NCBI GenBank assembly: GCA_949879855.1
Contig: CATLBX010000001.1
Span: forward strand, 82 to 64,081
Length of the DNA: 64,000 bases
Direction: 5' to 3'
Source of the DNA: an uncultured Coriobacteriia bacterium
GTDB lineage: Bacteria; Actinomycetota; Coriobacteriia; Coriobacteriales; QAMH01
The notes under the pieces were generated by a model. The model searched no databases and was not told the origin of the DNA. It saw only the letters and a program-made list of their open reading frames with translations. Positions 5,326-48,626 of this stretch are shown one piece after another. The position numbers and the translations under genes are program-made. Position 1 is the stretch's first letter. The number at the start of each line of letters is the position of its first letter.

Positions 5326-5513
5326 GCAGGTGGACTCCTCTATTCATACCTGTGCGCCACGCGAAAAGACGATGCGGGTGCGACCCGCGCGATGATGCTA
5401 TGCGTGGCGAAACGACGGCCCCACCGGGCCGCCTAGAGGAGGTCCGGAAAGGCTAACTACTGTGAGGTCGGGGTTTCACAGAGTTCCTTTCTTCTGGACG
5501 ACAAAAAAGCGTC
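5326..5513 (-). promoter_or_regulatory. About 190-nt structured leader/promoter region of the Mg-transport operon
   Basis: Minus-strand hairpins CGGCCC-GGTG-GGGCCG and GCGGGT-CGC-ACCCGC followed by a T-rich tract, nested in CGCCACGC...GCGTGGCG. No riboswitch class was recognised. Confidence 0.3.
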
Positions 5514-5608
5514 TGGCGGAGAGCTGGGGATTCGAACCCCAGATAGGGCTATCTAACCCTATACTCGCTTAGCAGGCGAGCGCCTTCAGCCAACTCGGCC
5601 AGCTCTCC
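5514..5608 (-). tRNA. tRNA-Ser (anticodon GCU), type II with long variable arm, encoded CCA
   Basis: Manual cloverleaf: acceptor GGAGAGC/GCTCTCC, anticodon loop CT-GCT-AA, T-arm TGGGG-TTCGAAT-CCCCA. Confidence 0.9.
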
Positions 5609-6785: not shown

Positions 6786-6862
6786 GGGGCATTACCTCAG
6801 CTGGATAGAGGGACTGACTACGAATCAGTACGTCAGGGGTTCGAATCCCTTATGCCCCACCA
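6786..6862 (+). tRNA. tRNA-Arg (anticodon ACG), encoded CCA
   Basis: Acceptor GGGGCAT/ATGCCCC, anticodon loop CT-ACG-AA, T-arm AGGGG-TTCGAAT-CCCTT. Confidence 0.9.
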
Positions 6863-7055: not shown

Positions 7056-7934
7056 TTAGTCAGCGGCTTGCCATGCGATTCCCTCATTGGTCCATCCTGC
7101 GTCTACGAGCGCGGACCACTCGGACTCGTCAGCCGTGAAGTGATGCGCCCCCGTGTTCGGGTTGTAGACGCGGTAGACGGGTTTGCCATAACGCATGTCG
7201 GCGAATGTGACGGTCTCGGCAGTCCATCCTGCCTTGACGAGGTTGCTGGCCTCGTCGTAGTTCACCGTGTAATGGTGCTGGCCAGCGTTTGGATTGTAGA
7301 GACGGTACACGACACTGCCTCTGTCTGCCCCCATGAATGCCACGCCCTCCCGACTGTAGTTCTCAGGAAGCGCCTCGTATTCTGCCTCCGATGCAGTCAA
7401 GAAATGGTCGTCGGTGTCTGCGCGGTAGGCGCGGTAAACCGGGTAGGTTCCGGTGGGAATGTCTATGCGTATCAAGTCGCCCTCCTTCTCGGTGTTGGGA
7501 TATAGGCCAACAACTTCCTCGAACGGGAAGTTATCGCCCGGACAGTTGGTATCGAGCACGTCCTTATGCCTCAGAACGGTCTCGATGCCGTACTTGGCCT
7601 TGAGCATCGTTATGAGGTCTCGTCCAGCCAAGATTTGCGTCTGCGGCATCTTTTCGCGCATGTAGTCGCCCTCGAAGCAGATTCCGATGCTGTCGTAGTT
7701 ACTGCCCTCGGCGTGCGCTCCGATTGCCCATTCGGGTCGCATCGAGTAGACGGTGCCGTCCTTGCGCACGAGGAAGTGGTAACCCGCTCCGGCCCATCCC
7801 CTGCCCTCGACGTGCCAGCGCTGGATGTCCTCGGGCGACGCGGTAGATGCCTCGGCGTGGTGGACGATGATCCGATTCGTCGCGCTCCTGCGAGACAGCG
7901 AGCCAAACGGCAAGTTCGCGTCAATCACTCGCAT
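7056..7934 (-). CDS. Endolysin: N-acetylmuramoyl-L-alanine amidase (Amidase_2/PGRP type) + C-terminal YRxYNPNxGxHxxT wall-binding repeats
   Basis: N-terminus IIVHHAE...GAGYHFLV...GAHA...NCPG. The C-terminal half has three repeats of the same family as the host surface proteins. Confidence 0.85.
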   Translation of the reverse strand: MRVIDANLPFGSLSRRSATNRIIVHHAEASTASPEDIQRWHVEGRGWAGAGYHFLVRKDGTVYSMRPEWAIGAHAEGSNYDSIGICFEGDYMREKMPQTQILAGRDLITMLKAKYGIETVLRHKDVLDTNCPGDNFPFEEVVGLYPNTEKEGDLIRIDIPTGTYPVYRAYRADTDDHFLTASEAEYEALPENYSREGVAFMGADRGSVVYRLYNPNAGQHHYTVNYDEASNLVKAGWTAETVTFADMRYGKPVYRVYNPNTGAHHFTADESEWSALVDAGWTNEGIAWQAAD

Positions 7935-8446: not shown

Positions 8447-9424
8447 ATGGACGCAATGAAACTCACGGTTGAACAAATAACGACCGACCACTACTTGCCC
8501 GAGAAGCGCAAGCGCAGGCGCACCAACACCGTCGATGGCTACGAGAGCAGCATCGGGCTCTACGTCATCCCGCAATGGGGCGATATGGCGATCTCTCAGA
8601 TAGGCAGGGACGACGTACAGGACTGGGTCGAGCGTCTTGCCGGCACAAAGGCCGGCCCAGGAGGTGCCTGGAAAGCCTACAAGTGCCTGCGCCAAATCAT
8701 CCGCTGGGCCATGAGCAAGTGGGGCCTGTTCGTGGCCGACCCGACATTGGGCATCGAGAAACCGCGAAAGCCCGCCTACAAGCCAGAAGTGCTCACGCCC
8801 CGGCGCCTGAAGAGGCTCATCCGCGGATTCGTCGGATGCGAGCAGGAGCCGACGCTGATCATCGAGGCCGACCTGGGAACGCGTCCGGGGGAGTGCTACG
8901 TCATGCGCTGGGAGTGGATCAACTGGCGCACGGGCCACGTGCCGATCGCCTCGACGCTGCAGCAGGCGTCAGACGGCGTGCGCGAATGGCCGACGAAGAC
9001 GGCAAAGGGCGAGCGCGACGGCTATCTTTCTCCGTGGGCGCTCGACCGCCTGCACCAGATCTGGGTGCAGCGAGGACGGCCGCGCGGGAGAATCATCGGG
9101 GACCTCAAGCCATCGCAGATCGCATACCGCATCCAGCGGTGGATAAAGGTTCATAGGTTACCGAAGATAACGATGAAGAACTTACGGCATACCTGGGGAA
9201 CCATCGCCGCGCAGTCTGGTGTGCCCATCGAGACGGTGTCGGCGATGATGGGGCACTCGGACATCCAGACGACGTACCGTTACTACTACGCGCTCACTGC
9301 CGCAACCGCGCGAAAGGCAAAGCGGCGCATGGCAAGAAGCATCCTCGGCAAGACGTGCTCCGAGATGTACAAGGGTATCGTGTTGCCGCTCGCACCAGCG
9401 GAGTCAGTGTCAAAAGCCGCGTAG
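8447..9424 (+). CDS. Tyrosine recombinase (325 aa), proposed shufflon-specific (Rci-like role)
   Basis: Catalytic signature GTRPGE (R), LRHTW (HxxR), MGHS, TTYRYY (Y). GGAG RBS 8 nt before ATG 8447. Its stop codon is 3 nt from the inverted site copy at 9428. Convergent with the tail-fibre gene. Confidence 0.85.
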   Translation: MDAMKLTVEQITTDHYLPEKRKRRRTNTVDGYESSIGLYVIPQWGDMAISQIGRDDVQDWVERLAGTKAGPGGAWKAYKCLRQIIRWAMSKWGLFVADPTLGIEKPRKPAYKPEVLTPRRLKRLIRGFVGCEQEPTLIIEADLGTRPGECYVMRWEWINWRTGHVPIASTLQQASDGVREWPTKTAKGERDGYLSPWALDRLHQIWVQRGRPRGRIIGDLKPSQIAYRIQRWIKVHRLPKITMKNLRHTWGTIAAQSGVPIETVSAMMGHSDIQTTYRYYYALTAATARKAKRRMARSILGKTCSEMYKGIVLPLAPAESVSKAA

Positions 9425-9427
9425 GGC

Positions 9428-9594
9428 ATTCCTTGTCCCAAGGCTTGGTTAGCTCACCTCACGGCGAGAAAATCAACATATGGAGCGACGGAAGCGGCTA
9501 CATCACGATCATGCTCACGGCCCCAGGAGGCGTGTGGCGGCGAGTGAACATCATGAAAGACGGTAGACTCTTGTGGACGGACAGCACGAGCTAG
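9428..9594 (+). other. Silent tip cassette C0 (only one on + strand): SLSQ-GLVSSPHGEKINIW...GRLLWTDSTS* (50 aa variable)
   Basis: Open frame from the site core in the conserved phase. No start codon of its own at the core. Confidence 0.8.
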
Positions 9595-9730
9595 GCAAGC
9601 TGTGTGTAGCCTATCAAATTGACGCGTGAGTAGTCCGTATACCAGTATATTCGCTTCGTGCTCTGTTGAACCCAATAGTAGATCCTGTCATTTTGTCCCG
9701 CGGCCTGCAACGCGCTTCGGGACAAGGAAT
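9591..9730 (-). other. Silent tip cassette C1: SLSR-SALQAAGQNDRIYYWVQQ...LIGYTQLA* (41 aa)
   Basis: Manually translated and open from core to stop. The stop shares the CTAG palindrome with the C0 stop. Confidence 0.8.
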
Positions 9731-9908
9731 CACCTTAGCTGCCGCTTTATTTCTCCATCGAGAATTACTTCAAAAGCTGGCATCGATTGCATCGTGCGAA
9801 CTTTAATTGTAATGATATGACCGTCAGGGGTTTTATATTCTTTCGTGATTCCTGCTTCACCGTCAGAGTACCAGGTGCCGTGAGTTTCCGACGCACGGGA
9901 CAAGGAAT
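9730..9908 (-). other. Silent tip cassette C2: SLSR-ASETHGTWYSDGEAGITKEY...DGEIKRQLR* (54 aa)
   Basis: Open from the core. The TGA stop forms the 5' flank of the next site (TGATTCCTTGTCCC). Confidence 0.8.
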
Positions 9909-10086
9909 CACTTTGGGAAGCGAGAGACCCATTCTCCGGTGCCCTGCCTCGTATATATGAGCATCCCTTGCACGGTGTGAAACCCGACCCTCATAGTCTC
10001 GCTGCCGATGGAAAAATCTTCCCACGCGTAAAACTCGCCGCTCGTCTGCTTCTCAGAGCCAAATCGAGGAGTTTGGGACAAGGAAT
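9908..10086 (-). other. Silent tip cassette C3: SLSQ-TPRFGSEKQTSGEFYAWEDF...GTGEWVSRFPK* (54 aa)
   Basis: Open from the core. The TGA stop abuts the next site. Confidence 0.8.
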
Positions 10087-10087
10087 A

Positions 10088-10341
10088 TCAACTGCCTGTC
10101 ATGACATGTATGACCTGCAAGCCATTGATCACGGTTCCGGGAGCGCCAAAAACGCCCCTGGCAAACAGCGCGAATGGCACTTTCGGCGACATGGAATTGT
10201 ATGTGACTATCGAGCTAAACGCTATCCTGCGTGCTTCCTCGGCTGTGATTCCACCCATGCTAGAGAACGCCAATGCGCCGCTGTCGGGTATCGTTATGCT
10301 GGCATAGGTAACCGTCTTCGTTGTGTATCGGGACAAGGAAT
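10088..10341 (-). other. Silent tip cassette C4: SLSR-YTTKTVTYASITIPDSGALAF...LQVIHVMTGS* (79 aa)
   Basis: Matches the track ORF 10088-10369 from ...GDSLSR onward. Confidence 0.8.
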
Positions 10342-10477
10342 CACCCAGGAAAGAAATCAGCATGTTCACCAGTCTTCGACGTAAGCCTGATGAAGGGTGT
10401 GCCGTCGTCTTTGGCGGTGAACCTGACCGACGCTATACCCAAGCCGTCATCCCTGTAAGAGATGCGGGACAAGGAAT
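10341..10477 (-). other. Silent tip cassette C5: SLSR-ISYRDDGLGIASVRFTAKDDGTPFIRLTSKTGEHADFFPG* (40 aa)
   Basis: Manually translated. It contains no start codon and is absent from the ORF track. The TGA stop abuts the next site. Confidence 0.8.
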
Positions 10478-10673
10478 CACTTTGCTAGATTTACATAGCC
10501 GATTACCTTGCCTGCAACGCTGTCGTGTACCTGCATTCTGTCTTTCGTAATGATAAAAGCGTAGCTTTCGGTTTCGCCCGTTGCTGTTACTTGCATTAAG
10601 TGTGATGACATACCCATGCCGATGCTTGCGTCTATCGCGTTGCTTTGCATTCTGGCTTTGCGGGACAAGGAAT
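10477..10673 (-). other. Silent tip cassette C6: SLSR-KARMQSNAIDASIGMGMSSH...KVIGYVNLAK* (60 aa)
   Basis: Extends the track ORF 10477-10668 upstream to the core in the same frame. Confidence 0.8.
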
Positions 10674-10674
10674 G

Positions 10675-10829
10675 TCAATGCCACACAACTTCGCTTGTCG
10701 AGTCCAAGCAGTAAATCTCCTTGTAGCCAACTCCCTTGAGTACGAAACCTATCACTGGCAACCCTGCGCTCGATTTGTAAATCCGAACATTCGTTATCTC
10801 GTCATCTATCTGTATCTGGGACAAGGAAT
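10675..10829 (-). other. Silent tip cassette C7: SLSQ-IQIDDEITNVRIYKSSAGLPVIGFVLKGVGYKEIYCLDSTSEVVWH* (46 aa)
   Basis: Manually translated and open. Stop is 1 nt before the next core. Confidence 0.8.
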
Positions 10830-10830
10830 G

Positions 10831-11087
10831 CTACGAGGGGGAGAAAGTGACCCATTCGCTCCATGCGTTTCCCGATCTGTTGCGCGTGCATACATTCGAT
10901 CCCCAGTTGGGAAAGTAGACCTGCCTTTGCCATCCTCCTCCCATCGGAGATGACAGTTGCAGACAGAGACCGTAGTCGGCGACATTGCTCGGCTTATTGA
11001 GGGTTTCAGCGACGCAGACGATGACCATTGCATCCACGTTGTTGAGATCTACGGCTCTCGGTGTTTCGGATAATCGGGACAAGGAAT
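10831..11087 (-). other. Silent tip cassette C8: SLSR-LSETPRAVDLNNVDAMVIVC...GNAWSEWVTFSPS* (80 aa)
   Basis: Extends the track ORF 10831-11082 to the core. The C-terminal WSEWV resembles the WSDWV of the expressed tip. Confidence 0.8.
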
Positions 11088-11090
11088 GCC

Positions 11091-11260
11091 CTACGATTTA
11101 ATCCTGTCATCGGAGAAGAGCGCAGATGATCCCCATCTGCCGTCCGACAATACGACGGTCAGTCCCACTGAACCATCTTTTCTCGCAAAGATGCGGGCTT
11201 CGGCAATTGACAAAAAGATATCGGAAGGAGACTCGAGAGAGACGCTGCGGGACAAGGAAT
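11091..11260 (-). other. Silent tip cassette C9: SLSR-SVSLESPSDIFLSIAEARIFARKDGSVGLTVVLSDGRWGSSALFSDDRIKS* (51 aa)
   Basis: Manually translated. It has no Met and is absent from the ORF track. The TAG stop is 3 nt before the next core. Confidence 0.8.
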
Positions 11261-11525
11261 CATTTGCCGATTGCCAGCCAATGCACGTAGACGTTTTCTA
11301 TCGCTGTCGTAGACCTGTTCGATAAGATGATTCCACATTTCGTCGCACTCACGCCGTATGCATGAGCAGTTAGATACTGACTCACCCCGCGACCATCAAC
11401 GATGTAGGGAATGAAGGCGATTAGCTGATTAAAAGGACGGTCAAAAGTCACGACTTCGGCCAAAGTTCCATTCGGCACAGCTTCGCTAAACGTGTACACT
11501 CCCCACTGCATCTGGGACAAGGAAT
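11260..11525 (-). other. Silent tip cassette C10: SLSQ-MQWGVYTFSEAVPNGTLAEV...NVYVHWLAIGK* (83 aa)
   Basis: Part of the track ORF 11260-11625 (..RHSLSQMQWG..). The TGA stop abuts the next site. Confidence 0.8.
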
Positions 11526-11528
11526 GCC

Positions 11529-12203
11529 TCAAAGCTGAACCCAGTCGCTCCACGGCTTTGTATTGATCCTGCGGCGAATGTACATGCCACCAGTCTCTGT
11601 CATGAGTGCGATCTGCCAAACCCATGATGTTGACATGTTAAGAGCAAGGCAGACGCCGTACTGTCCCGCAACAGGAAGGTGCTTGCAATCACTCTTGAAT
11701 GCGGATAGCCCGATGGTATGCAAGTCAAGATCGTCAACAAAATTCGATGTTTTGAATGGCGATTGGGACAAGGAATCCCGGAGGGGTTGAGAAAGCTTCG
11801 CATCTGTCACCGCGCCGTCCTCGATCATGCCGGTCGTGACCAACGTGATGTCATCGGTAGAGCCAATCTTGACCCATGAACCGCCCTGGTAAATCCATTT
11901 CGTCCACACGCCGTCACCGACGGGCACGAAATAGATGCAACTTGTCGATGGGTTCGCGATTGTCGGCTTGCCAGTCGATGCGTCGTATTCGCCTGATGCG
12001 CAGAAATGCTGCGCCCACACGCCCAGGCTCGCGAGATCATCATAGGTGAGAAGACGCTTCACGTTTCCCTTGTCGAACGCGACGTTGAGGCCCTTTCCGT
12101 CTGGGGATGTCGGGTCGTTTGCGCTGAAAACCGCCGCCTGCCCCGGCAACAGCGTATCCGGGTCGAAATCGTTGTAATCAGCAGATTCGAAAGTGACTGC
12201 CAT
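11529..12203 (-). CDS. Tail fibre / receptor-binding protein (224 aa): constant N-terminal 143 aa + currently fused tip cassette C11
   Basis: The ...ITLVTTGMIEDGAVTDAKLSQPLRDSLSQ junction is encoded over site 11765-11776. The tip is SPFKTSNFVDD...KPWSDWVQL*. It is the last structural gene before the array. Confidence 0.8.
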   Translation of the reverse strand: MAVTFESADYNDFDPDTLLPGQAAVFSANDPTSPDGKGLNVAFDKGNVKRLLTYDDLASLGVWAQHFCASGEYDASTGKPTIANPSTSCIYFVPVGDGVWTKWIYQGGSWVKIGSTDDITLVTTGMIEDGAVTDAKLSQPLRDSLSQSPFKTSNFVDDLDLHTIGLSAFKSDCKHLPVAGQYGVCLALNMSTSWVWQIALMTETGGMYIRRRINTKPWSDWVQL

Positions 12204-12237: not shown

Positions 12238-13251
12238 CTAGTCGAGAACGCCCGTGTAGTTCTTGCAGCACCACATGATCGTCTCGATGAAATCCTTGCC
12301 GTTTCTCAGCGACGCGGGAATGACGAGCACCCCGTCAGTCGTGATCACGATCCCGCTCGCGGTATGGACGTCATGCACGGGTTTGTACCCGTACGGGAGG
12401 TCGATGCGTGCCTCCGCACTCGCCTGGCGCATAGCATGCGCCTCTATCTTTGCCGAGGCGACGGGGCCGCGTCTCGCGAGCTCCATGCTTCCCGAGCTTG
12501 CAATCTGGGCGTCAATCCCGACGGTCGCGTCATCATCTTCCGAAAAAATCGCGTTTCCGCCGAACCTGATGTTGCCGTTTAGATACGCCGGTCCCGTCCA
12601 TCTCAGGTAGGGCACGTCACTTACGCCCAGGTAATCGTCTAGCTTCTCTATAACAAGACCCATTTCGGGATGTTCGGCAAACTCAACGAAAAACCCATCT
12701 GGGGTAATAGCGATAATCATGTCGCCGGGCGCCAGCCTAACGTCCTCACCGAACTTCGATACGATATTGCCGTTGCCATCGACTACGTATATACCGGGTT
12801 CGGGAAATCCATCCGATGCTCCCGGTGCCTCGAGTATCCTGAAGTCGCCGTATCTGTTTCCCACCCAGAAGCCGTCTTCGTCGACGGCCATGTACGTGTT
12901 GATGAATCCTTTGGCGTCCCGTGCTGTTCCGAGCGCGATGACACCAATCTCGCCTGCGGCGGCCGCGCTGCCAAGGGCCCTTCGCGCGGCGGAATCGTCT
13001 GTCGCGGGATTGCTGAAGTTGCCCATGATAGACGCAATGCCATCTTTGACGCGCACGTTGACGCTTTGGCCGGGATTGGCTTCGACGGTCCTTCTCGTGC
13101 ACGGCGTCTCCTCGCTTGATCCAGGCAGACGAACCCAGACCGTTCCCTCGTCATCGATTCTCGTAACCGTTCCACTCGTCTCGACCTGGGATTGCCTGAC
13201 GGAGACCAGGCCGGCAATCTGCCTGGCGATGCTCTCAAACACGTTTGCCAT
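12238..13251 (-). CDS. Phage tail/baseplate structural protein (337 aa)
   Basis: Position between the tail-tip genes and the fibre. N-terminus GTVTRIDDEGTVWVRLPGS...V.V.V.DG is typical of minor tail proteins. Confidence 0.55.
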   Translation of the reverse strand: MANVFESIARQIAGLVSVRQSQVETSGTVTRIDDEGTVWVRLPGSSEETPCTRRTVEANPGQSVNVRVKDGIASIMGNFSNPATDDSAARRALGSAAAAGEIGVIALGTARDAKGFINTYMAVDEDGFWVGNRYGDFRILEAPGASDGFPEPGIYVVDGNGNIVSKFGEDVRLAPGDMIIAITPDGFFVEFAEHPEMGLVIEKLDDYLGVSDVPYLRWTGPAYLNGNIRFGGNAIFSEDDDATVGIDAQIASSGSMELARRGPVASAKIEAHAMRQASAEARIDLPYGYKPVHDVHTASGIVITTDGVLVIPASLRNGKDFIETIMWCCKNYTGVLD

Positions 13252-39031: not shown

Positions 39032-39352
39032 TCACCCCCCCCTCATGGCGATGTCGGGAAACAGCGCCATGATGACACCCCTCGCCCTATTCCTGACCAT
39101 GACATCGGCTTCCCTGGGATTGCACGCACACATATGCGAAAGCGCTTCGGTCATGGCCCATAGCCCGATGGACATTTCGCCGATCCCGATGGCCCCGATG
39201 ATCTCGTCGACCTCTTCGGTCGTTTCGGCAGCCTGGTAAACCTGGTCGCAGGCCATTTCGAAGGCCACGATGCGCTCCACGGCGGACCTGTCGGCATCGT
39301 TGGCGATGGCCATGAAGGCCCTGGCCGCCTCGACTCTCTCCTTGTCACTCAT
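39032..39352 (-). CDS. Hypothetical phage protein (106 aa)
   Basis: ORF from MSDKERVEAARAF. Overlaps the recombinase stop by 8 nt. Confidence 0.45.
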   Translation of the reverse strand: MSDKERVEAARAFMAIANDADRSAVERIVAFEMACDQVYQAAETTEEVDEIIGAIGIGEMSIGLWAMTEALSHMCACNPREADVMVRNRARGVIMALFPDIAMRGG

Positions 39353-40673
39353 CTTTCCACTCCTCCTTTGTCTCGTATCTCGCGCAGGGACGGCACAGGA
39401 CGGGGCACTCGGGTATCCAACCCGCCCCCAGCTCGTCACCTGCCCTATCTGCCCGCGAATGCTCGGAGACGACCCGCGCGAAGATGCGCGCGACCTCGCC
39501 GTCGCGCCCCGGCACCATGTGGCCGTAGAGCGCGACGGTCGTCTCGGGCTTCGCGTGCCCGAACCGCTCCTGCACCGCCCTCAGGTCGGCCCCGTTCGCG
39601 ATCAGGTACGACGCGTGCGTGTGACGCAGGGTGTGCAGGTGCGTCTTCGGGTCAAGGCCAAGCTCCTTGACAAGCGCGCCGAAGAGCCCCGTTATCTCGC
39701 GCGGCGTGAAAAAGGAGCCATCCGAATGGCAGAACAGGGGAATCGTGGTTCGCGGCCTCACGCCGCGCTCGGCAAGCACGGCATTTCGCACGTTGCGATA
39801 CGCGACGATGATCCTCATCGTCGCCTCGTCGAAGGTCACGAAACGCGACTTGCCGGACTTCGGCGGCTTGGAGATGATCGTCGTCCTGCGCGAGTTGAGG
39901 TCGCGCTTGTAGGCAAGGACGCGAGACACGCGAACCCCCATCTCGCCACCTGCGCTCATCTGGACGGACAGTTCGAGGAGACCGGCGAGCTCCCCCCTGC
40001 GAAGACCGCTGTTGAGATCGACCCACACCATCGCGGCGAATGCGTACGTCTCGTATTCTGCCAAGCTCGTCACGGGAGCCGTGAGAACGGATTCGAGCCA
40101 AGAGAGCAGCTTCGCCATGTCGTCTGGCGAAAGGGGCTTCACCTCGACGGGCTTTGCCGCAGGAACGCGCACCTCGGCAAGCGGGTTCGTGGATGCGTGC
40201 CCGTTTGACTTGAGGTAGCGGAACGCACCGCTCATGAACGCGTGGATCTTCTCGACGGTCGTTCCCGCGAGCTCTGCGCCGCCCCTTTTCCTCGGCTTGC
40301 GCAAATCGCGGTAGAAGGCGGAGAAGAGGCGCTCGTCTGCCGCGTCGTAGTAGACATGGCCGATGCGCGGGCGGATGTGCCGCTCGAGGTAGCTCAGGTA
40401 GCTCGACATGGTCGTCGGCGACAGCAGGCCGAGCTCGTCGCATTCCGACAGGTAGAAGTCGATGGCCGCACCTATGGTCATCGCGTCGCTGTGACCCTTG
40501 AGGACGGCGGCGCGTGCGTCGAGCTCTGCCTTCGCCCTCTCGACCTCCGCATCGCCCGCGTCGGCTGGCAACGTCGTCGATATCGTGCGCGGCGTCCTCG
40601 TGTCCGGGTTGATTCCCGCGTATGCGCGCAGGAGGTGGTTGCCCGTGCGCTTGTCGATGGTGTCAGACGCCAT
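39345..40673 (-). CDS. Tyrosine recombinase no. 2 (442 aa) embedded in the early operon, with ~60-aa Cys-containing C-terminal extension
   Basis: SGLRRGE (R), LRHTHASY (HxxR), FGHAK, TVALYGH (Y). C-terminal tail ..IPECPVLCRPCARYETKEEWKDE. Confidence 0.8.
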   Translation of the reverse strand: MASDTIDKRTGNHLLRAYAGINPDTRTPRTISTTLPADAGDAEVERAKAELDARAAVLKGHSDAMTIGAAIDFYLSECDELGLLSPTTMSSYLSYLERHIRPRIGHVYYDAADERLFSAFYRDLRKPRKRGGAELAGTTVEKIHAFMSGAFRYLKSNGHASTNPLAEVRVPAAKPVEVKPLSPDDMAKLLSWLESVLTAPVTSLAEYETYAFAAMVWVDLNSGLRRGELAGLLELSVQMSAGGEMGVRVSRVLAYKRDLNSRRTTIISKPPKSGKSRFVTFDEATMRIIVAYRNVRNAVLAERGVRPRTTIPLFCHSDGSFFTPREITGLFGALVKELGLDPKTHLHTLRHTHASYLIANGADLRAVQERFGHAKPETTVALYGHMVPGRDGEVARIFARVVSEHSRADRAGDELGAGWIPECPVLCRPCARYETKEEWKDE

Positions 40674-40900
40674 CAGACCGACCTCATGACGAGGTAGCCC
40701 AACGTGCAGAGGGCCAGGATGACGATGGCGGGAACGCATGCTCGCCTGCATGCGGTCAAGCGGTCGTCGTTTTTCCGCCTATCGCGCGTCAATCGGAAAT
40801 CGCGCGACCCTACCAGGTCGATGTCGAGCCGGGTGCGCACGGGGGTGAAGGGCCCCCTCGCCCCCGTCGCGCGGGGGCCCTGGTCTCCTATGTTTCGCAT
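40673..40900 (-). CDS. Possible small membrane protein (75 aa)
   Basis: ORF ATGA-coupled to the recombinase start. C-terminal hydrophobic segment VPAIVILALCTLGYLVM. Confidence 0.3.
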   Translation of the reverse strand: MRNIGDQGPRATGARGPFTPVRTRLDIDLVGSRDFRLTRDRRKNDDRLTACRRACVPAIVILALCTLGYLVMRSV

Positions 40901-45177: not shown

Positions 45178-45876
45178 ATGACAAGGACGGCCGTGCTGGT
45201 GGACGGAGGGTTCTACCGCAAGCGAGCGGAGCACTACTGGGGCGAGCGGAAGGCCGCCGAAAGAGCAGACGAGCTCATGAAATACGTCTTTCGCCACCTG
45301 GACAAGAAGGACGGTCCCTGCAGAAGGGAGCTCTACCGCATCTTCTACTACGACTGCCCCCCGATGGAGAACACCGTGTTTCATCCCCTGAAGGGGAACA
45401 TCGAGTTCCGCAAGCTCGACGGGTACACGTGGGCCCTGAGCTTCTTCGACGAGCTCAAGAAGTGCAGGAAGGTGGCGCTTCGCATGGGCAGGCTCTCTGA
45501 GGTGGGCATGCACTACGAACTCACGCCGGATGCGACCAAGAAGATCGTGGCGGGAAGGAAGAAGGTCGAGGATCTCGAGGATTCCGATTTCCGCGTAGCT
45601 TTCAAGCAAAAGGGCGTTGACATGCGCATGGGCGTTGACATCTCGTCACTTGCCTACGAGGGCATAGTCGACCAGATAATCCTGATCGCAGGCGACAGCG
45701 ATTTCGTGCCAGCTGCCAAGGCGGCGAGGCGCAAGGGCATCGACTTCATCCTCGACCCCATGGGAAACCAGATCAGCGACGACCTTTTCGAGCACATAGA
45801 CGGCATGGAGTCGTTCATCCGGGAGGGCGACCCGTTGAAGCCCAAGAAGAAGGCGAAGCCGAAGCCGAAGAGCTGA
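45178..45876 (+). CDS. NYN-domain (LabA/DUF88-like) putative ribonuclease (232 aa); prophage moron
   Basis: RTAVLVDGGFY at the N-terminus and IILIAGDSDFVPAAKAARRKGIDF. Own RBS GGAGG and an upstream TTGACG-N17-TTAGAT promoter-like element near 45017. Confidence 0.7.
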   Translation: MTRTAVLVDGGFYRKRAEHYWGERKAAERADELMKYVFRHLDKKDGPCRRELYRIFYYDCPPMENTVFHPLKGNIEFRKLDGYTWALSFFDELKKCRKVALRMGRLSEVGMHYELTPDATKKIVAGRKKVEDLEDSDFRVAFKQKGVDMRMGVDISSLAYEGIVDQIILIAGDSDFVPAAKAARRKGIDFILDPMGNQISDDLFEHIDGMESFIREGDPLKPKKKAKPKPKS

Positions 45877-45958: not shown

Positions 45959-45973
45959 CAGGTGCATCATACC

Positions 45974-47125
45974 ATGCAGGTGAAGTCATCGGGAATCCTC
46001 AGCCTCGAGAAGGACAAGCCGAACGGCAAGTGCCGCAAGTGGCGTCTGTGGGCAAACACCGCAGAGGAGGGGCGAAAGTTCAGGCGCTTCACGGGGACGT
46101 ACTCCATGGCCAGGCGAGCGCTCGACGACTTCGTGCGCGAGCTCGGCGCGGTCATCCCCAATGGGGACACCCTCGCCGCCTACGCCGAGGCACGGGTGGA
46201 GGCACGCGCCGCATCGGGCGACATATCGCCGAACACCATCGACAAGGAGCGCCGCAACGTGCGCGCGATCGCGCGCGCCCCCTTCGCCGGCATGAGGATG
46301 GACGAGATCGGCCCGGCGGACTGCCGCGAGTCGCTCGCCTGGATAAAGGCGAACCCCCAGCGCCCGAACCTCGTGCGCGAGGAGGGCCTGTCGAACACGA
46401 CGATGCGCGGCATCTACCGCTTCGTGCGACAGACCTTCGGGCAGGCCGTCGACGACGAGCTTCTCGCCCGCAACCCCATGGCTAAGGTCAAGGACCCGCG
46501 GGACGACTCGCCCGAGGTCGAGGCGCTCCCGTGGAGAGAGCTCGAGCGCATCCTGGACCTGCTCGACAAGCAGCCCATGTCCGGATACGTCATGGCGCTC
46601 TACCTCATCGTGTGCGACGCGCTTCGGCGCGCCGAGTCGGTCGCGGTGCTCGACGCCGAGGTACAGGCGTCGATGTTCAGGGTCTCGCAGGCCGTAAAGG
46701 AGGCCGACGGCACGGTCGACGACCCGAAGTCCGAGGCAGGCAAGCGCGACATGCCGGTGCTCCCCAGGCTATGGGGAAAGGTCGGCGAGATGCGGGCGTG
46801 GAAGAGGGCGAGGGGCCTTGCCGACGCGCTCCCCCTGGCGTGCAACTACAAGGGCGGCGTGATCAGGCCCCAGAACCTCTACAGGTGGTGGAAGCGAATA
46901 ACCGTGGGGACCGATTTCGAGGACGTGGGGCTGCACCAGATCCGCCACAGCAACCTCTCGCACGTCGCGCGGCGCATGTCGGCCTACGACCTGATGCGCT
47001 ACGCCGGATGGAGCTCGCTCGAGCCCACGCGCACCTACATCCACGACGACTACGCGACGCTGTCGAGATGCTACTACGAGGCGTTCGGCATGGAGGGAAG
47101 CGACTCGATCAGGCTCGCCGCGTAG
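45974..47125 (+). CDS. Prophage integrase (tyrosine recombinase, 383 aa from ATG 45974; GTG 45962 possible)
   Basis: ALRRAE (R), HQIRHS (HxxR), YAGW, TRTYIH (Y). Ends 130 nt before attR. Confidence 0.85.
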   Translation: MQVKSSGILSLEKDKPNGKCRKWRLWANTAEEGRKFRRFTGTYSMARRALDDFVRELGAVIPNGDTLAAYAEARVEARAASGDISPNTIDKERRNVRAIARAPFAGMRMDEIGPADCRESLAWIKANPQRPNLVREEGLSNTTMRGIYRFVRQTFGQAVDDELLARNPMAKVKDPRDDSPEVEALPWRELERILDLLDKQPMSGYVMALYLIVCDALRRAESVAVLDAEVQASMFRVSQAVKEADGTVDDPKSEAGKRDMPVLPRLWGKVGEMRAWKRARGLADALPLACNYKGGVIRPQNLYRWWKRITVGTDFEDVGLHQIRHSNLSHVARRMSAYDLMRYAGWSSLEPTRTYIHDDYATLSRCYYEAFGMEGSDSIRLAA

Positions 47126-47843: not shown

Positions 47844-48626
47844 CTAATGGAAGCAAAGCCTGCAAGGCTCGAGACCTCTGGCGCGCGCCGCGTCGATGCT
47901 TATGGGCGTTGTGTTGCTGCGCTTCGTCGAGGAGCAGGATGCGCGATGATATTTAGTACCGGTTTTGGTAATGTACACGGTATCTGACACCGACGGTCCC
48001 GATGACGAACCAGCGTTGGAAGATCCGCTTGTATCGGGTACGGGAGCGGGGGCAATCGTTCTTCCCTCGCCAATGGCATACCAGCCAATGCCTTCTCCGC
48101 GCCATCCGATGCTGACGAGTGAGTCGTTCTCGCCCTTAGATGTTGTGTAGTTATGAGAACCCGAATTGTTGCGACGAGCGCTGGGGTTAACATTGGGGTT
48201 GAACTGGCGATAGAGCGGAATATCCTTACGACTGTCCGAAGAATACCAGCCGATGCCCTCGTCTCTCCACCCGACGCGAACCAGCTCATTGCGCTCCCCA
48301 ACATCCATGGTGTAGTGATGATCAGTACCCGAATACAGACGATAGACCGGCGTTTCCGACCATGCGGGTGCAACCCAACCGATGCCCTCATAGGTCCAAC
48401 CCACGCTCACAAGGCTGTCCTTCTCTGCCGTATCTGCAGTGTAGAAATGCTCGCCAGAGTTCGGATTGTATACGCGGTGCATCTCCTGGCTACCGGCATC
48501 CAGCGCATGAGCGTTTGTGGAGCTAAGCGAGAGTGCGGCAAACGCCAGCAGAGCAAACGCCAACATGAGCAATGCCATAACGGCGGATCTGGAACAAGTG
48601 CGTGAAAAGCATGATGTATCTCGCAT
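47844..48626 (-). CDS. Secreted protein: YRxYNPN wall-binding repeats + C-terminal Cys motif (KYHRASCSS...EPCRLC)
   Basis: Signal peptide, four repeats and a Ser/Gly linker. Confidence 0.75.
   Translation of the reverse strand: MRDTSCFSRTCSRSAVMALLMLAFALLAFAALSLSSTNAHALDAGSQEMHRVYNPNSGEHFYTADTAEKDSLVSVGWTYEGIGWVAPAWSETPVYRLYSGTDHHYTMDVGERNELVRVGWRDEGIGWYSSDSRKDIPLYRQFNPNVNPSARRNNSGSHNYTTSKGENDSLVSIGWRGEGIGWYAIGEGRTIAPAPVPDTSGSSNAGSSSGPSVSDTVYITKTGTKYHRASCSSTKRSNTTPISIDAARARGLEPCRLCFH

Follow-up and report, generated by a model that had tools for sequence, protein, structure and literature searches.

A Rin-type shufflon with 12 alternative fibre cassettes in a prophage of a Coriobacteriia bacterium, and its natural isomers

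The Rin shufflon was described in the Bifidobacterium prophages Bb423phi1, Bl157phi1 and Bl30698phi1 (Mavrich et al. 2018, PMC6109161). In these loci an armless tyrosine invertase lies at one end, the constant part of a receptor-binding gene (Rc) lies at the other, and tandem Rv cassettes each stand behind an asymmetric 11-bp site, rix (TTCCCTAACCC) (PMC6109161). Inversion of the whole array was the predominant variant in Bb423phi1, and the same authors raised the problem of directionality (PMC6109161). A Rin shufflon was also reported in 2022 for Eggerthella lenta clade 1 prophages, with the rix ttccgtat, shuffling inferred from two prophages, and an H-type lectin reported for the Rv genes (PMC8778435). 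Rin shufflons are named in three papers of the library searched; the two in which such loci are described call them putative (PMC6109161, PMC8778435), and a search of the literature from 2019 on for phage shufflons with tyrosine recombinases and tail fibres returned nothing beyond these two Rin papers. Here we analyse a locus in a stretch of 64,000 nucleotides (the window) from an uncultured Coriobacteriia bacterium (GCA_949879855.1, contig CATLBX010000001.1), in which a rin-like recombinase gene is followed by an array of cassettes and a phage tail-fibre gene. The locus is a Rin-type shufflon and not a relative of R64/Rci. We are highly confident that it is an active multiple-inversion switch of this type, carried by a siphovirus-like prophage of an Eggerthellaceae host.

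Five traits of a Rin system are present: an adjacent armless recombinase distinct from the integrase, a rix-like repeat, Rc and Rv cassettes in a tail module, and inversions between copies of the same phage. As in the Bifidobacterium loci, the armless tyrosine recombinase and the constant Rc part of the receptor-binding gene occupy opposite ends, and a short asymmetric site precedes each tandem cassette, the gene having one site within it and another immediately behind it. The cassettes are again dissimilar to one another and whole-array inversion is prominent. The Bifidobacterium site TTCCCTAACCC and the window site (A)TTCCTTGTCCC are identical at 7 of 11 positions and differ in their central bases, while the recombinases of the Bifidobacterium-type phages PMBT6 and ctl617, through which the comparison was made in place of the Bb423phi1 Rin, are 31-33% identical to that of the window. 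The window differs in its host class (Coriobacteriia), in the number of cassettes (12 compared to 5) and in their length (45-88 compared to 95-100 amino acids, aa). The E. lenta system shares the host family predicted here, Eggerthellaceae, to which the relatives of the locus point. Many relatives of the window recombinase at 53-73% identity use the site ATTCCGTATCCC, which contains the published rix ttccgtat, and one window cassette (C10, below) has a weak H-type lectin match. Compared to the E. lenta loci, the window core reads TTGT where theirs reads GTAT, the number of cassettes is far greater, and many isomers of one phage are seen.

The array is built on a non-palindromic 12-mer, ATTCCTTGTCCC, that occurs exactly 12 times in the window, always within 9428-11776. 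One copy is on the + strand (9428-9439) and 11 are on the - strand, starting at 9719, 9897, 10075, 10330, 10466, 10662, 10818, 11076, 11249, 11514 and 11765. All 12 cores are intact. When up to two mismatches are allowed there are 17 matches, compared to 3.6 +/- 2 in shuffled sequence (0 of 100 shuffles reached 17), and the five inexact matches outside the array are at chance level. Each cassette has one copy of the site, and one of these copies lies inside the fibre open reading frame (ORF). An in-frame open cassette of 45-88 aa follows every site in a single reading frame, starting (D/H/Y)SLS(Q/R), and all 12 are in frame with Rc through the site. The cassettes are mutually dissimilar, the detectable kinship being between C8 and C11 and, weakly, between C5 and C9. 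At the recombinase end, the C0 ORF (9355..9594, + strand) and the C1 ORF (9591..9725, - strand) converge on the palindrome CTAG at 9591-9594. An earlier note on this DNA had described both the lone inverted site beside the recombinase, facing 11 sites of one orientation, and the stop codon common to C0 and C1, and both descriptions hold. The features are as follows.

8447..9424, + strand: rin-like tyrosine recombinase gene, 325 aa (Pfam, PHROG); stop TAG at 9422-9424, 3 nt before S0
9428..9439, + strand: S0, fixed anchor site adjoining the recombinase, sole + site
9440..9594, + strand: cassette C0, 55 aa including site-encoded residues; stop TAG at 9592-9594
9591..9594, both strands: CTAG, stop codon common to the convergent C0 and C1, which stand tail to tail with no site between
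9591..9718, - strand: cassette C1, 46 aa
9719..9730, - strand: site S1
9731..9896, - strand: cassette C2, 59 aa; its stop, TGA, runs into base 1 of S1
9897..9908, - strand: site S2
9909..10074, - strand: cassette C3, 59 aa; joined to Rc in contig L037
10075..10086, - strand: site S3
10087..10329, - strand: cassette C4, 84 aa
10330..10341, - strand: site S4
10342..10465, - strand: cassette C5, 45 aa
10466..10477, - strand: site S5
10478..10661, - strand: cassette C6, 65 aa
10662..10673, - strand: site S6
10674..10817, - strand: cassette C7, 51 aa
10818..10829, - strand: site S7
10830..11075, - strand: cassette C8, 85 aa, distant paralogue of C11
11076..11087, - strand: site S8
11088..11248, - strand: cassette C9, 56 aa
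11249..11260, - strand: site S9
11261..11513, - strand: cassette C10, 88 aa, with a match to Pfam Gp53-like_C
11514..11525, - strand: site S10
11526..11764, - strand: cassette C11, 82 aa, fused to Rc, the expressed one in the window isomer; ORF stop at 11529-11531
11765..11776, - strand: S11, fixed site within the fibre gene; with its 5' flank, GGGATTCCTTGTCCC
11777..12203, - strand: Rc, constant N-terminal 142 codons of the fibre, or putative receptor-binding, protein
12238..13251, - strand: upstream tail gene, 337 aa, used as anchor for retrieving the fibre side of other isomers

Public assemblies were queried with the exact recombinase and the exact upstream tail protein (337 aa), with contigs taken from ENA, NCBI and Logan. 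The identical 325-aa recombinase was called on 22 public contigs. In the same-phage contigs retrieved, cassettes and flanking genes are 99-100% identical to those of the window, and the array is found in at least seven arrangements. In the maps below, which are read from rin to Rc, a slash marks the C0/C1 pivot.

Window and L027 (GCA_948811325.1): C0 / C1..C11; Rc fused to C11
L029 (SRR28237159) and L045 (SRR28237158): C11..C1 / C0; Rc fused to C0
L037 (SRR31563909): C11..C4, C0 / C1, C2, C3; Rc fused to C3
L038 (SRR14167429): C3, C6, C5, C2, C1 / C0, C4, C7..C11; Rc fused to C11
L028 and L031 (partial): C4, C5, C1...; fusion to Rc not seen
L032 (partial): C8, C3, C2, C10, C11, C1...; fusion to Rc not seen
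L034 (partial): C8, C2, C4, C10, C9...; fusion to Rc not seen

L027 is 99.98% identical to the window over 8.6 kb. The fusion of C0 to Rc, a 197-aa protein (P0001), is present in L029, L045 and L047, and L030, L033 and L035 are consistent with the same flipped isomer. The earlier note had suspected that the window shows an inversion system in one of its isomeric states, and had proposed that recombination of S0 with S11 would turn the entire array around and join C0 to the fibre. The number of arrangements bears out the first proposal, and L029 and L045 are exactly the isomer described by the second.

The junctions place the crossover. In the window they read [rin tail]-core-[C0 head] and [Rc]-core-[C11 head], and in L029 they read [rin tail]-core-[C11 head] and [Rc]-core-[C0 head], which shows that the exchange is reciprocal and falls within the 12-bp core. 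In other assemblies, five arrays were found that are complete or essentially so (L027, L029, L045, L037 and L038), and all five have 12 cassettes, as does the window. One to three inversions separate four of them from the window, and L027 has the same arrangement. The C0/C1 adjacency and the pattern of two opposed site blocks are kept in every same-phage contig. It should also be noted that some contigs end 0-3 nt from a site, both for this phage (L031, L041) and for other lineages (L001, L007, L012, L010), and that two of the site-ending contigs are isolate genomes (Enterorhabdus sp. P55 and Adlercreutzia shanghongiae R25). Such breaks are expected of within-sample heterogeneity, where reads continue in several ways, and we treat them as supportive only. 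No JGI metagenome contig contains an exact match to the rin-S0 junction, and this phage is absent from IMG/VR, where the highest identity to the recombinase is 73%.

These arrangements can be described by a simple model. The constant head Rc (142 codons) ends in the 12-bp site, and 12 promoterless, start-less C-terminal cassettes carry the same site at their 5' ends. The array is bounded by two fixed, opposed sites, S11 in the fibre gene and S0 right after the recombinase stop. The recombinase would swap strands in the 12-bp core between any + and any - site, inverting the intervening DNA. Because C0 and C1 stand tail to tail without a site between them, every inversion would span this pair, making it the permanent pivot, and because every inversion spans the pivot, every reachable state would be a + block followed by a - block. 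The window is an extreme state (one + site, 11 - sites) from which C0 alone is reachable in one step. The whole-array flip, S0 x S11, would lead to the opposite extreme, where the other 11 cassettes are each one step away. The output would be 12 alternative fibre tips.

We explored this model by treating a state as the cassette order plus the pivot position, and a move as the reversal of an interval containing the pivot. A breadth-first search from the window state reaches C0 in one step and all other cassettes in two, in agreement with the earlier note, which had placed any cassette within two inversions; L037, with C3 behind Rc, is a predicted second step. The minimal number of inversions from the window is one for L029, two for L037 and three for L038, and at least three, at least four and at least five for three partial orders. 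In the model computation, every one of the (n-2)! x (n-1) x 2 states can be reached when n, the number of cassettes, is 4 to 7. If the same is true for n = 12, the extrapolated number of array orders would be 10! x 11 x 2 = 79,833,600. Despite some 80 million possible orders, several samples show the same two states, the perfectly ordered array or its exact reverse (L027, L029, L045, L030, L033, L035 and L047). Either inversion is slow relative to phage spread, or the outermost pair, S0 x S11, is preferred.

Inversion is not the only way in which an array of this kind could switch. The earlier note had allowed for one-way deletional switching, in which direct-repeat recombination of S11 with a site Sk excises the intervening cassettes and lands Ck behind the fibre head irreversibly. 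All 11 - cassettes in the window do read in the direction of the fibre gene, and array length varies from 2 to 12 sites between lineages. However, since 55 of the 66 site pairs in the window state are direct, an unbiased enzyme would delete in 5 of 6 events, and the same high share of direct pairs that makes deletion conceivable makes the retention of all 12 cassettes in five of five complete or essentially complete arrays, four of them 1-3 inversions from the window, hard to explain by it. C0 and C3 are likewise joined to Rc in other samples without cassette loss. Therefore, switching takes place by inversion and not by deletion. In a sample that is small and drawn from assemblies, our data support a strong inversion bias, and deletional switching is very improbable. 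The possibility that the array formerly recombined and is now a relic fixed in the window arrangement is negligible. The window and L027 do share one neatly ordered state, and a degenerate anchor site (two mismatches) in the Bifidobacterium phage PMBT6 indicates that frozen arrays may exist in the family. In this phage, however, contigs that encode the identical recombinase (325 aa) or the identical tail protein (337 aa) show at least seven arrangements, their cassettes being ~100% identical at the nucleotide level; 12 of 12 cores are intact, and the recombinase is full length with catalytic motifs that align. The earlier note had named two outcomes that would tell against it, deletions alone and a fixed arrangement in related genomes. 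Both were looked for; inversions were found, and the arrangements vary.

The isomers themselves might be artefacts, formed by chimeric joins at the 12-bp repeat, as all of them come from short-read contigs and several contigs break at sites. However, a 12-bp repeat is shorter than the usual assembly k-mers, and the same flipped isomer appears in independent runs (L029, L045 and L047, with L030, L033 and L035 consistent). Random misjoins would break both the two-block rule and the C0/C1 adjacency, which hold in every contig, and relatives in other genera obey the same rule and show inversions relative to each other. We consider misassembly a highly unlikely source of the arrangements. Rearrangement could also be the work of host homologous recombination or of a trans-acting recombinase, encoded at 39345-40751 or 45962-47125, in place of the adjacent gene; trans-acting invertases are known, such as Mpi of Bacteroides fragilis (cited in PMC6109161), and the catalyst is one that we infer. 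Against this, 12 bp is too short for RecA-type exchange, and the two other window recombinases share only weak local similarity with the shufflon recombinase. Every recovered locus with downstream DNA has its first site within ~250 nt of the recombinase stop, mostly within 45 nt, and recombinase lineages differ in the central bases of their sites. As the loci were found by a recombinase search, this indicates that the recombinase brings the array along, the converse not being established. Host recombination or a trans-acting enzyme is accordingly very improbable as the driver, and the adjacent recombinase is the likely catalyst.

Several points count against an active, recombinase-driven switch of receptor-binding tips. 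The isomers come from short-read assemblies and not from single molecules, the check for cassette loss covers five complete arrays besides the window, and the link from the recombinase to inversion is one that we draw by inference. Lineages differ in array size, which ranges from 2 to 12 sites, and over evolutionary time cassettes must therefore be both acquired and lost. Neither Pfam nor PHROGs gives a match for the fibre, and the AlphaFold2 model built for it on a 6-sequence alignment is poor (mean pLDDT 48). The receptor-binding role of the fibre would follow from gene position, from one cassette domain match and from analogy.

Recombination between direct repeats is probably actively suppressed, through the asymmetry of the sites. 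The invariant part of the window sites is the 12 bp alone; outside positions -3 to -1 and +13 nothing is conserved. On the 5' side, -3 is G in 10 of 12 sites, -2 is G, T or A, and -1 is G, C or T. On the 3' side, +13 is always a purine and is the sole constrained position. The earlier note had seen partial conservation on only one side of the core, which is partly right. The consensus of 72 family sites is R-K-S-A-T-T-C-n-n-T-r-T-C-C-C-r, and the fibre-gene site is nearly always GGG-ATTC... across the family. These patterns suggest that the site may be a 4-bp dyad, GGGA/TCCC, flanking a 7-bp spacer, TTCnnTr, which in the window would be TTCCTTG, with a perfect right arm and a left arm that is degenerate at all cassette sites. 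The left arms are the tails of the upstream units (rin, Rc and C2-C11), and the stop codon of the upstream unit lies 0-6 nt 5' of each core, being in 5 of 11 cases a TGA whose A is base 1 of the core. The junctions of the isomers show that left arms stay put on inversion and that right arms change places together with the cassettes.

The R64 shufflon offers a point of comparison for both the site and the topology. R64 has one site per cassette, with seven sites and seven pilV C-termini. Like the window, it has a tyrosine recombinase (Rci) that acts on multiple asymmetric sites, joins a constant N-terminus to alternative C-terminal cassettes, and behaves as an inversion-only enzyme. Its sfx site has 19 conserved bp, made up of a 7-bp spacer and a 12-bp right arm, and an asymmetric, variable left arm (PMC11852207). 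The earlier note had pointed to this asymmetry, with one arm conserved, in agreement with the published site. By analogy, the proposed dyad with a degenerate left arm would follow the same principle as sfx, in which the right arm is conserved and the left arm varies (PMC11852207). The 19 conserved bp of sfx compare to 12 invariant bp and at most four partly conserved flank positions in the window, and Rci has an extra C-terminal domain where ~45 aa follow the catalytic Tyr of the window enzyme. R64 has tail-to-tail cassette pairs, several pivots and alternating sites, whereas the window has a single pivot and two blocks, and the R64 target is the pilV adhesin of a conjugative type IV pilus, whereas that of the window is a phage tail gene in a prophage. 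In a tblastn search of the recombinase against plasmids (E <= 1e-5), neither the genus summary nor the 15 listed of 66 matches includes an IncI, Escherichia or Salmonella plasmid, and the matches listed are generic integrases with no Rci. Gin of Mu, Cin of P1 and Min of p15B also exchange tail-fibre C-termini by site-specific inversion, Min by multiple inversion, but these are enhancer-dependent serine recombinases and the window enzyme is of the tyrosine type (Phage_integrase).

It is possible, although we regard it as rather doubtful, that this minimal inversion-only system represents an independent solution to directionality. Such a solution would consist of a site of ~16 bp, a left arm degenerate except at the fibre-gene site, and an armless recombinase of 325 aa, without the C-terminal domain of Rci and with no detectable closeness to it. 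In addition, the single-pivot, two-block topology would make switching state-dependent, with the window 'locked' to C0 and the S0 x S11 flip as a preferred master switch.

Related loci show how general the topology is. Genomes of Adlercreutzia, Enterorhabdus, Parvibacter and Eggerthella, IMG/VR contigs and gut metagenomes all contain relatives of the recombinase, at 53-94% identity, and the recombinases of the loci in these four genera are 53-73% identical to that of the window. In 27 of 27 loci with sites in both orientations (Eggerthellaceae and Bifidobacterium-type), a + block by the recombinase is followed by a - block up to the fibre gene, although six of the 27 rows (L024, L022, L052, L057, L005 and L056) look like repeat recoveries of counted loci. 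Counted from the recombinase, there are three + and one - sites in L002, two and three in L003, one and three in both L014 and L067, seven and one in L015, one and two in L018, four and three in L020, four and seven in L049 (11 sites), and two and four in L055. The Bifidobacterium-type phage ctl617 (L044), with TTCCGTAACCC sites, has five and two. L014, L018 and L067 share the kind of state seen in the window, with one + site and the rest -. The earlier note had called this topology unusual. It is unusual relative to R64, but it is the rule within the Rin family, which that note did not name. The window topology is one extreme of the family design and is not peculiar to this phage. With 12 cassettes, the window is the largest array found, followed by L049 (11) and L050 (at least 9). 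The site core is lineage-specific and fits ATT(C/G)nnnn(T)CCC, examples being ATTCCGTATCCC, ATTCGCTGTCCC, ATTCCTTATCCC and ATTGCTTGTCCC.

Three side observations concern these relatives. In PMBT6 (L043, MK932884.1) there are three exact TTCCGTAACCC sites on the - strand, and the anchor by the recombinase, TTCCGTAATCA, has two mismatches (positions 5341-5351, 5755, 6046 and 6348); this array may be frozen in the state with one + site and the rest -. Cassette segments are 94-99% identical between L003 and both L023 and L019, between L006 and L021, and between L017 and L019, some of them inverted. In these cassette-sharing pairs the recombinase genes are much less alike, at 71% identity for L003/L023 and 91-93% for the remainder, and this suggests that cassettes may pass horizontally between related phages with the same site core. 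Finally, L048 (an ERZ827492 contig) has a recombinase 94% identical to that of the window and the same core, TTCCTTGTCCC. A close sister phage therefore exists, its array unassembled because the contig ends 21 nt past the first site.

The recombinase matches Pfam Phage_integrase and Phage_int_SAM_3, with a SAM-like core-binding domain from residue 14 and a catalytic domain at 143-283, and its PHROG match is integrase. It has no arm-binding N-terminal domain. It is full length and aligns with XerA/XerD over the catalytic motifs GTRPGE, LRHTW, GHSD and TTYRYY. Two further tyrosine recombinase genes, at 39345-40751 (- strand) and 45962-47125 (+ strand), have weak local similarity to it, and one of these is probably the prophage integrase. 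An NYN-domain gene (45178-45876) adjoins the second.

The fibre ORF (11529-12203, - strand) encodes 224 aa and contains the site 11765-11776 in the same frame. A homology search with the fibre found five proteins, every one a variant of the same Rc, with the N-terminus kept and divergence after ...PLRD. Four of them (P0002, P0003, P0004 and P0005) are Rc relatives at 63-95% identity whose junction reads DSISR or DFIYR, compared to DSLSQ/R here. As the junction residues differ, sister phages use different site cores on a near-identical constant domain. Searches of Pfam and PHROGs gave no significant match for the fibre or for two of the three upstream tail proteins; a 333-aa upstream protein matches a PHROG 'tail protein' family. 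Among the cassettes, C10 matches Pfam Gp53-like_C, a tail-fibre C-terminal domain, at 25.2 bits (cutoff 24.9), alongside its weak H-type lectin match.

The gene order is tape measure protein (TMP), tail genes, fibre, array, rin, holin and endolysin, with portal and terminase genes also upstream of the fibre. Holin and amidase endolysin genes lie on the far side of the recombinase from the array. Since lysis genes are on one side and tail, TMP, portal and terminase genes are on the other, the locus is in the tail module of a prophage, which is siphovirus-like. The endolysin (7056-7934, - strand) combines Amidase_2 with DUF5648, and a second DUF5648 protein is encoded ~40 kb away (47844-48626, - strand); DUF5648 may be a cell-wall-binding module of this host group. 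A tRNA-Arg(ACG) gene (6786-6862, + strand), a candidate attachment site, lies ~200 nt outside the prophage on its endolysin side, with a tRNA-Ser(GCT) gene (5514-5608, - strand) further out. In L028, the host genes MgtE, Nramp and MFS lie just past the endolysin end.

The Rin shufflon design is already known (PMC6109161, PMC8778435), and the window locus adds to it. The array, with 12 alternative putative receptor-binding tips, is the largest found. Two opposed site blocks around a single tail-to-tail pivot emerge as an invariant across 27 loci with both orientations, and at least seven natural isomers of one phage are found with no cassette loss. These isomers are natural evidence of an enzyme that inverts rather than deletes, despite 55 of 66 pairs being direct. 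The directionality of an armless tyrosine recombinase becomes directly testable on a compact site, and the small invertase and its site are a candidate pair for synthetic shuffling tools. For the phage itself, exchange of the cassettes may alter host range, and a shufflon of this kind would help explain the difficulty of matching gut Actinobacteria phages to their hosts.

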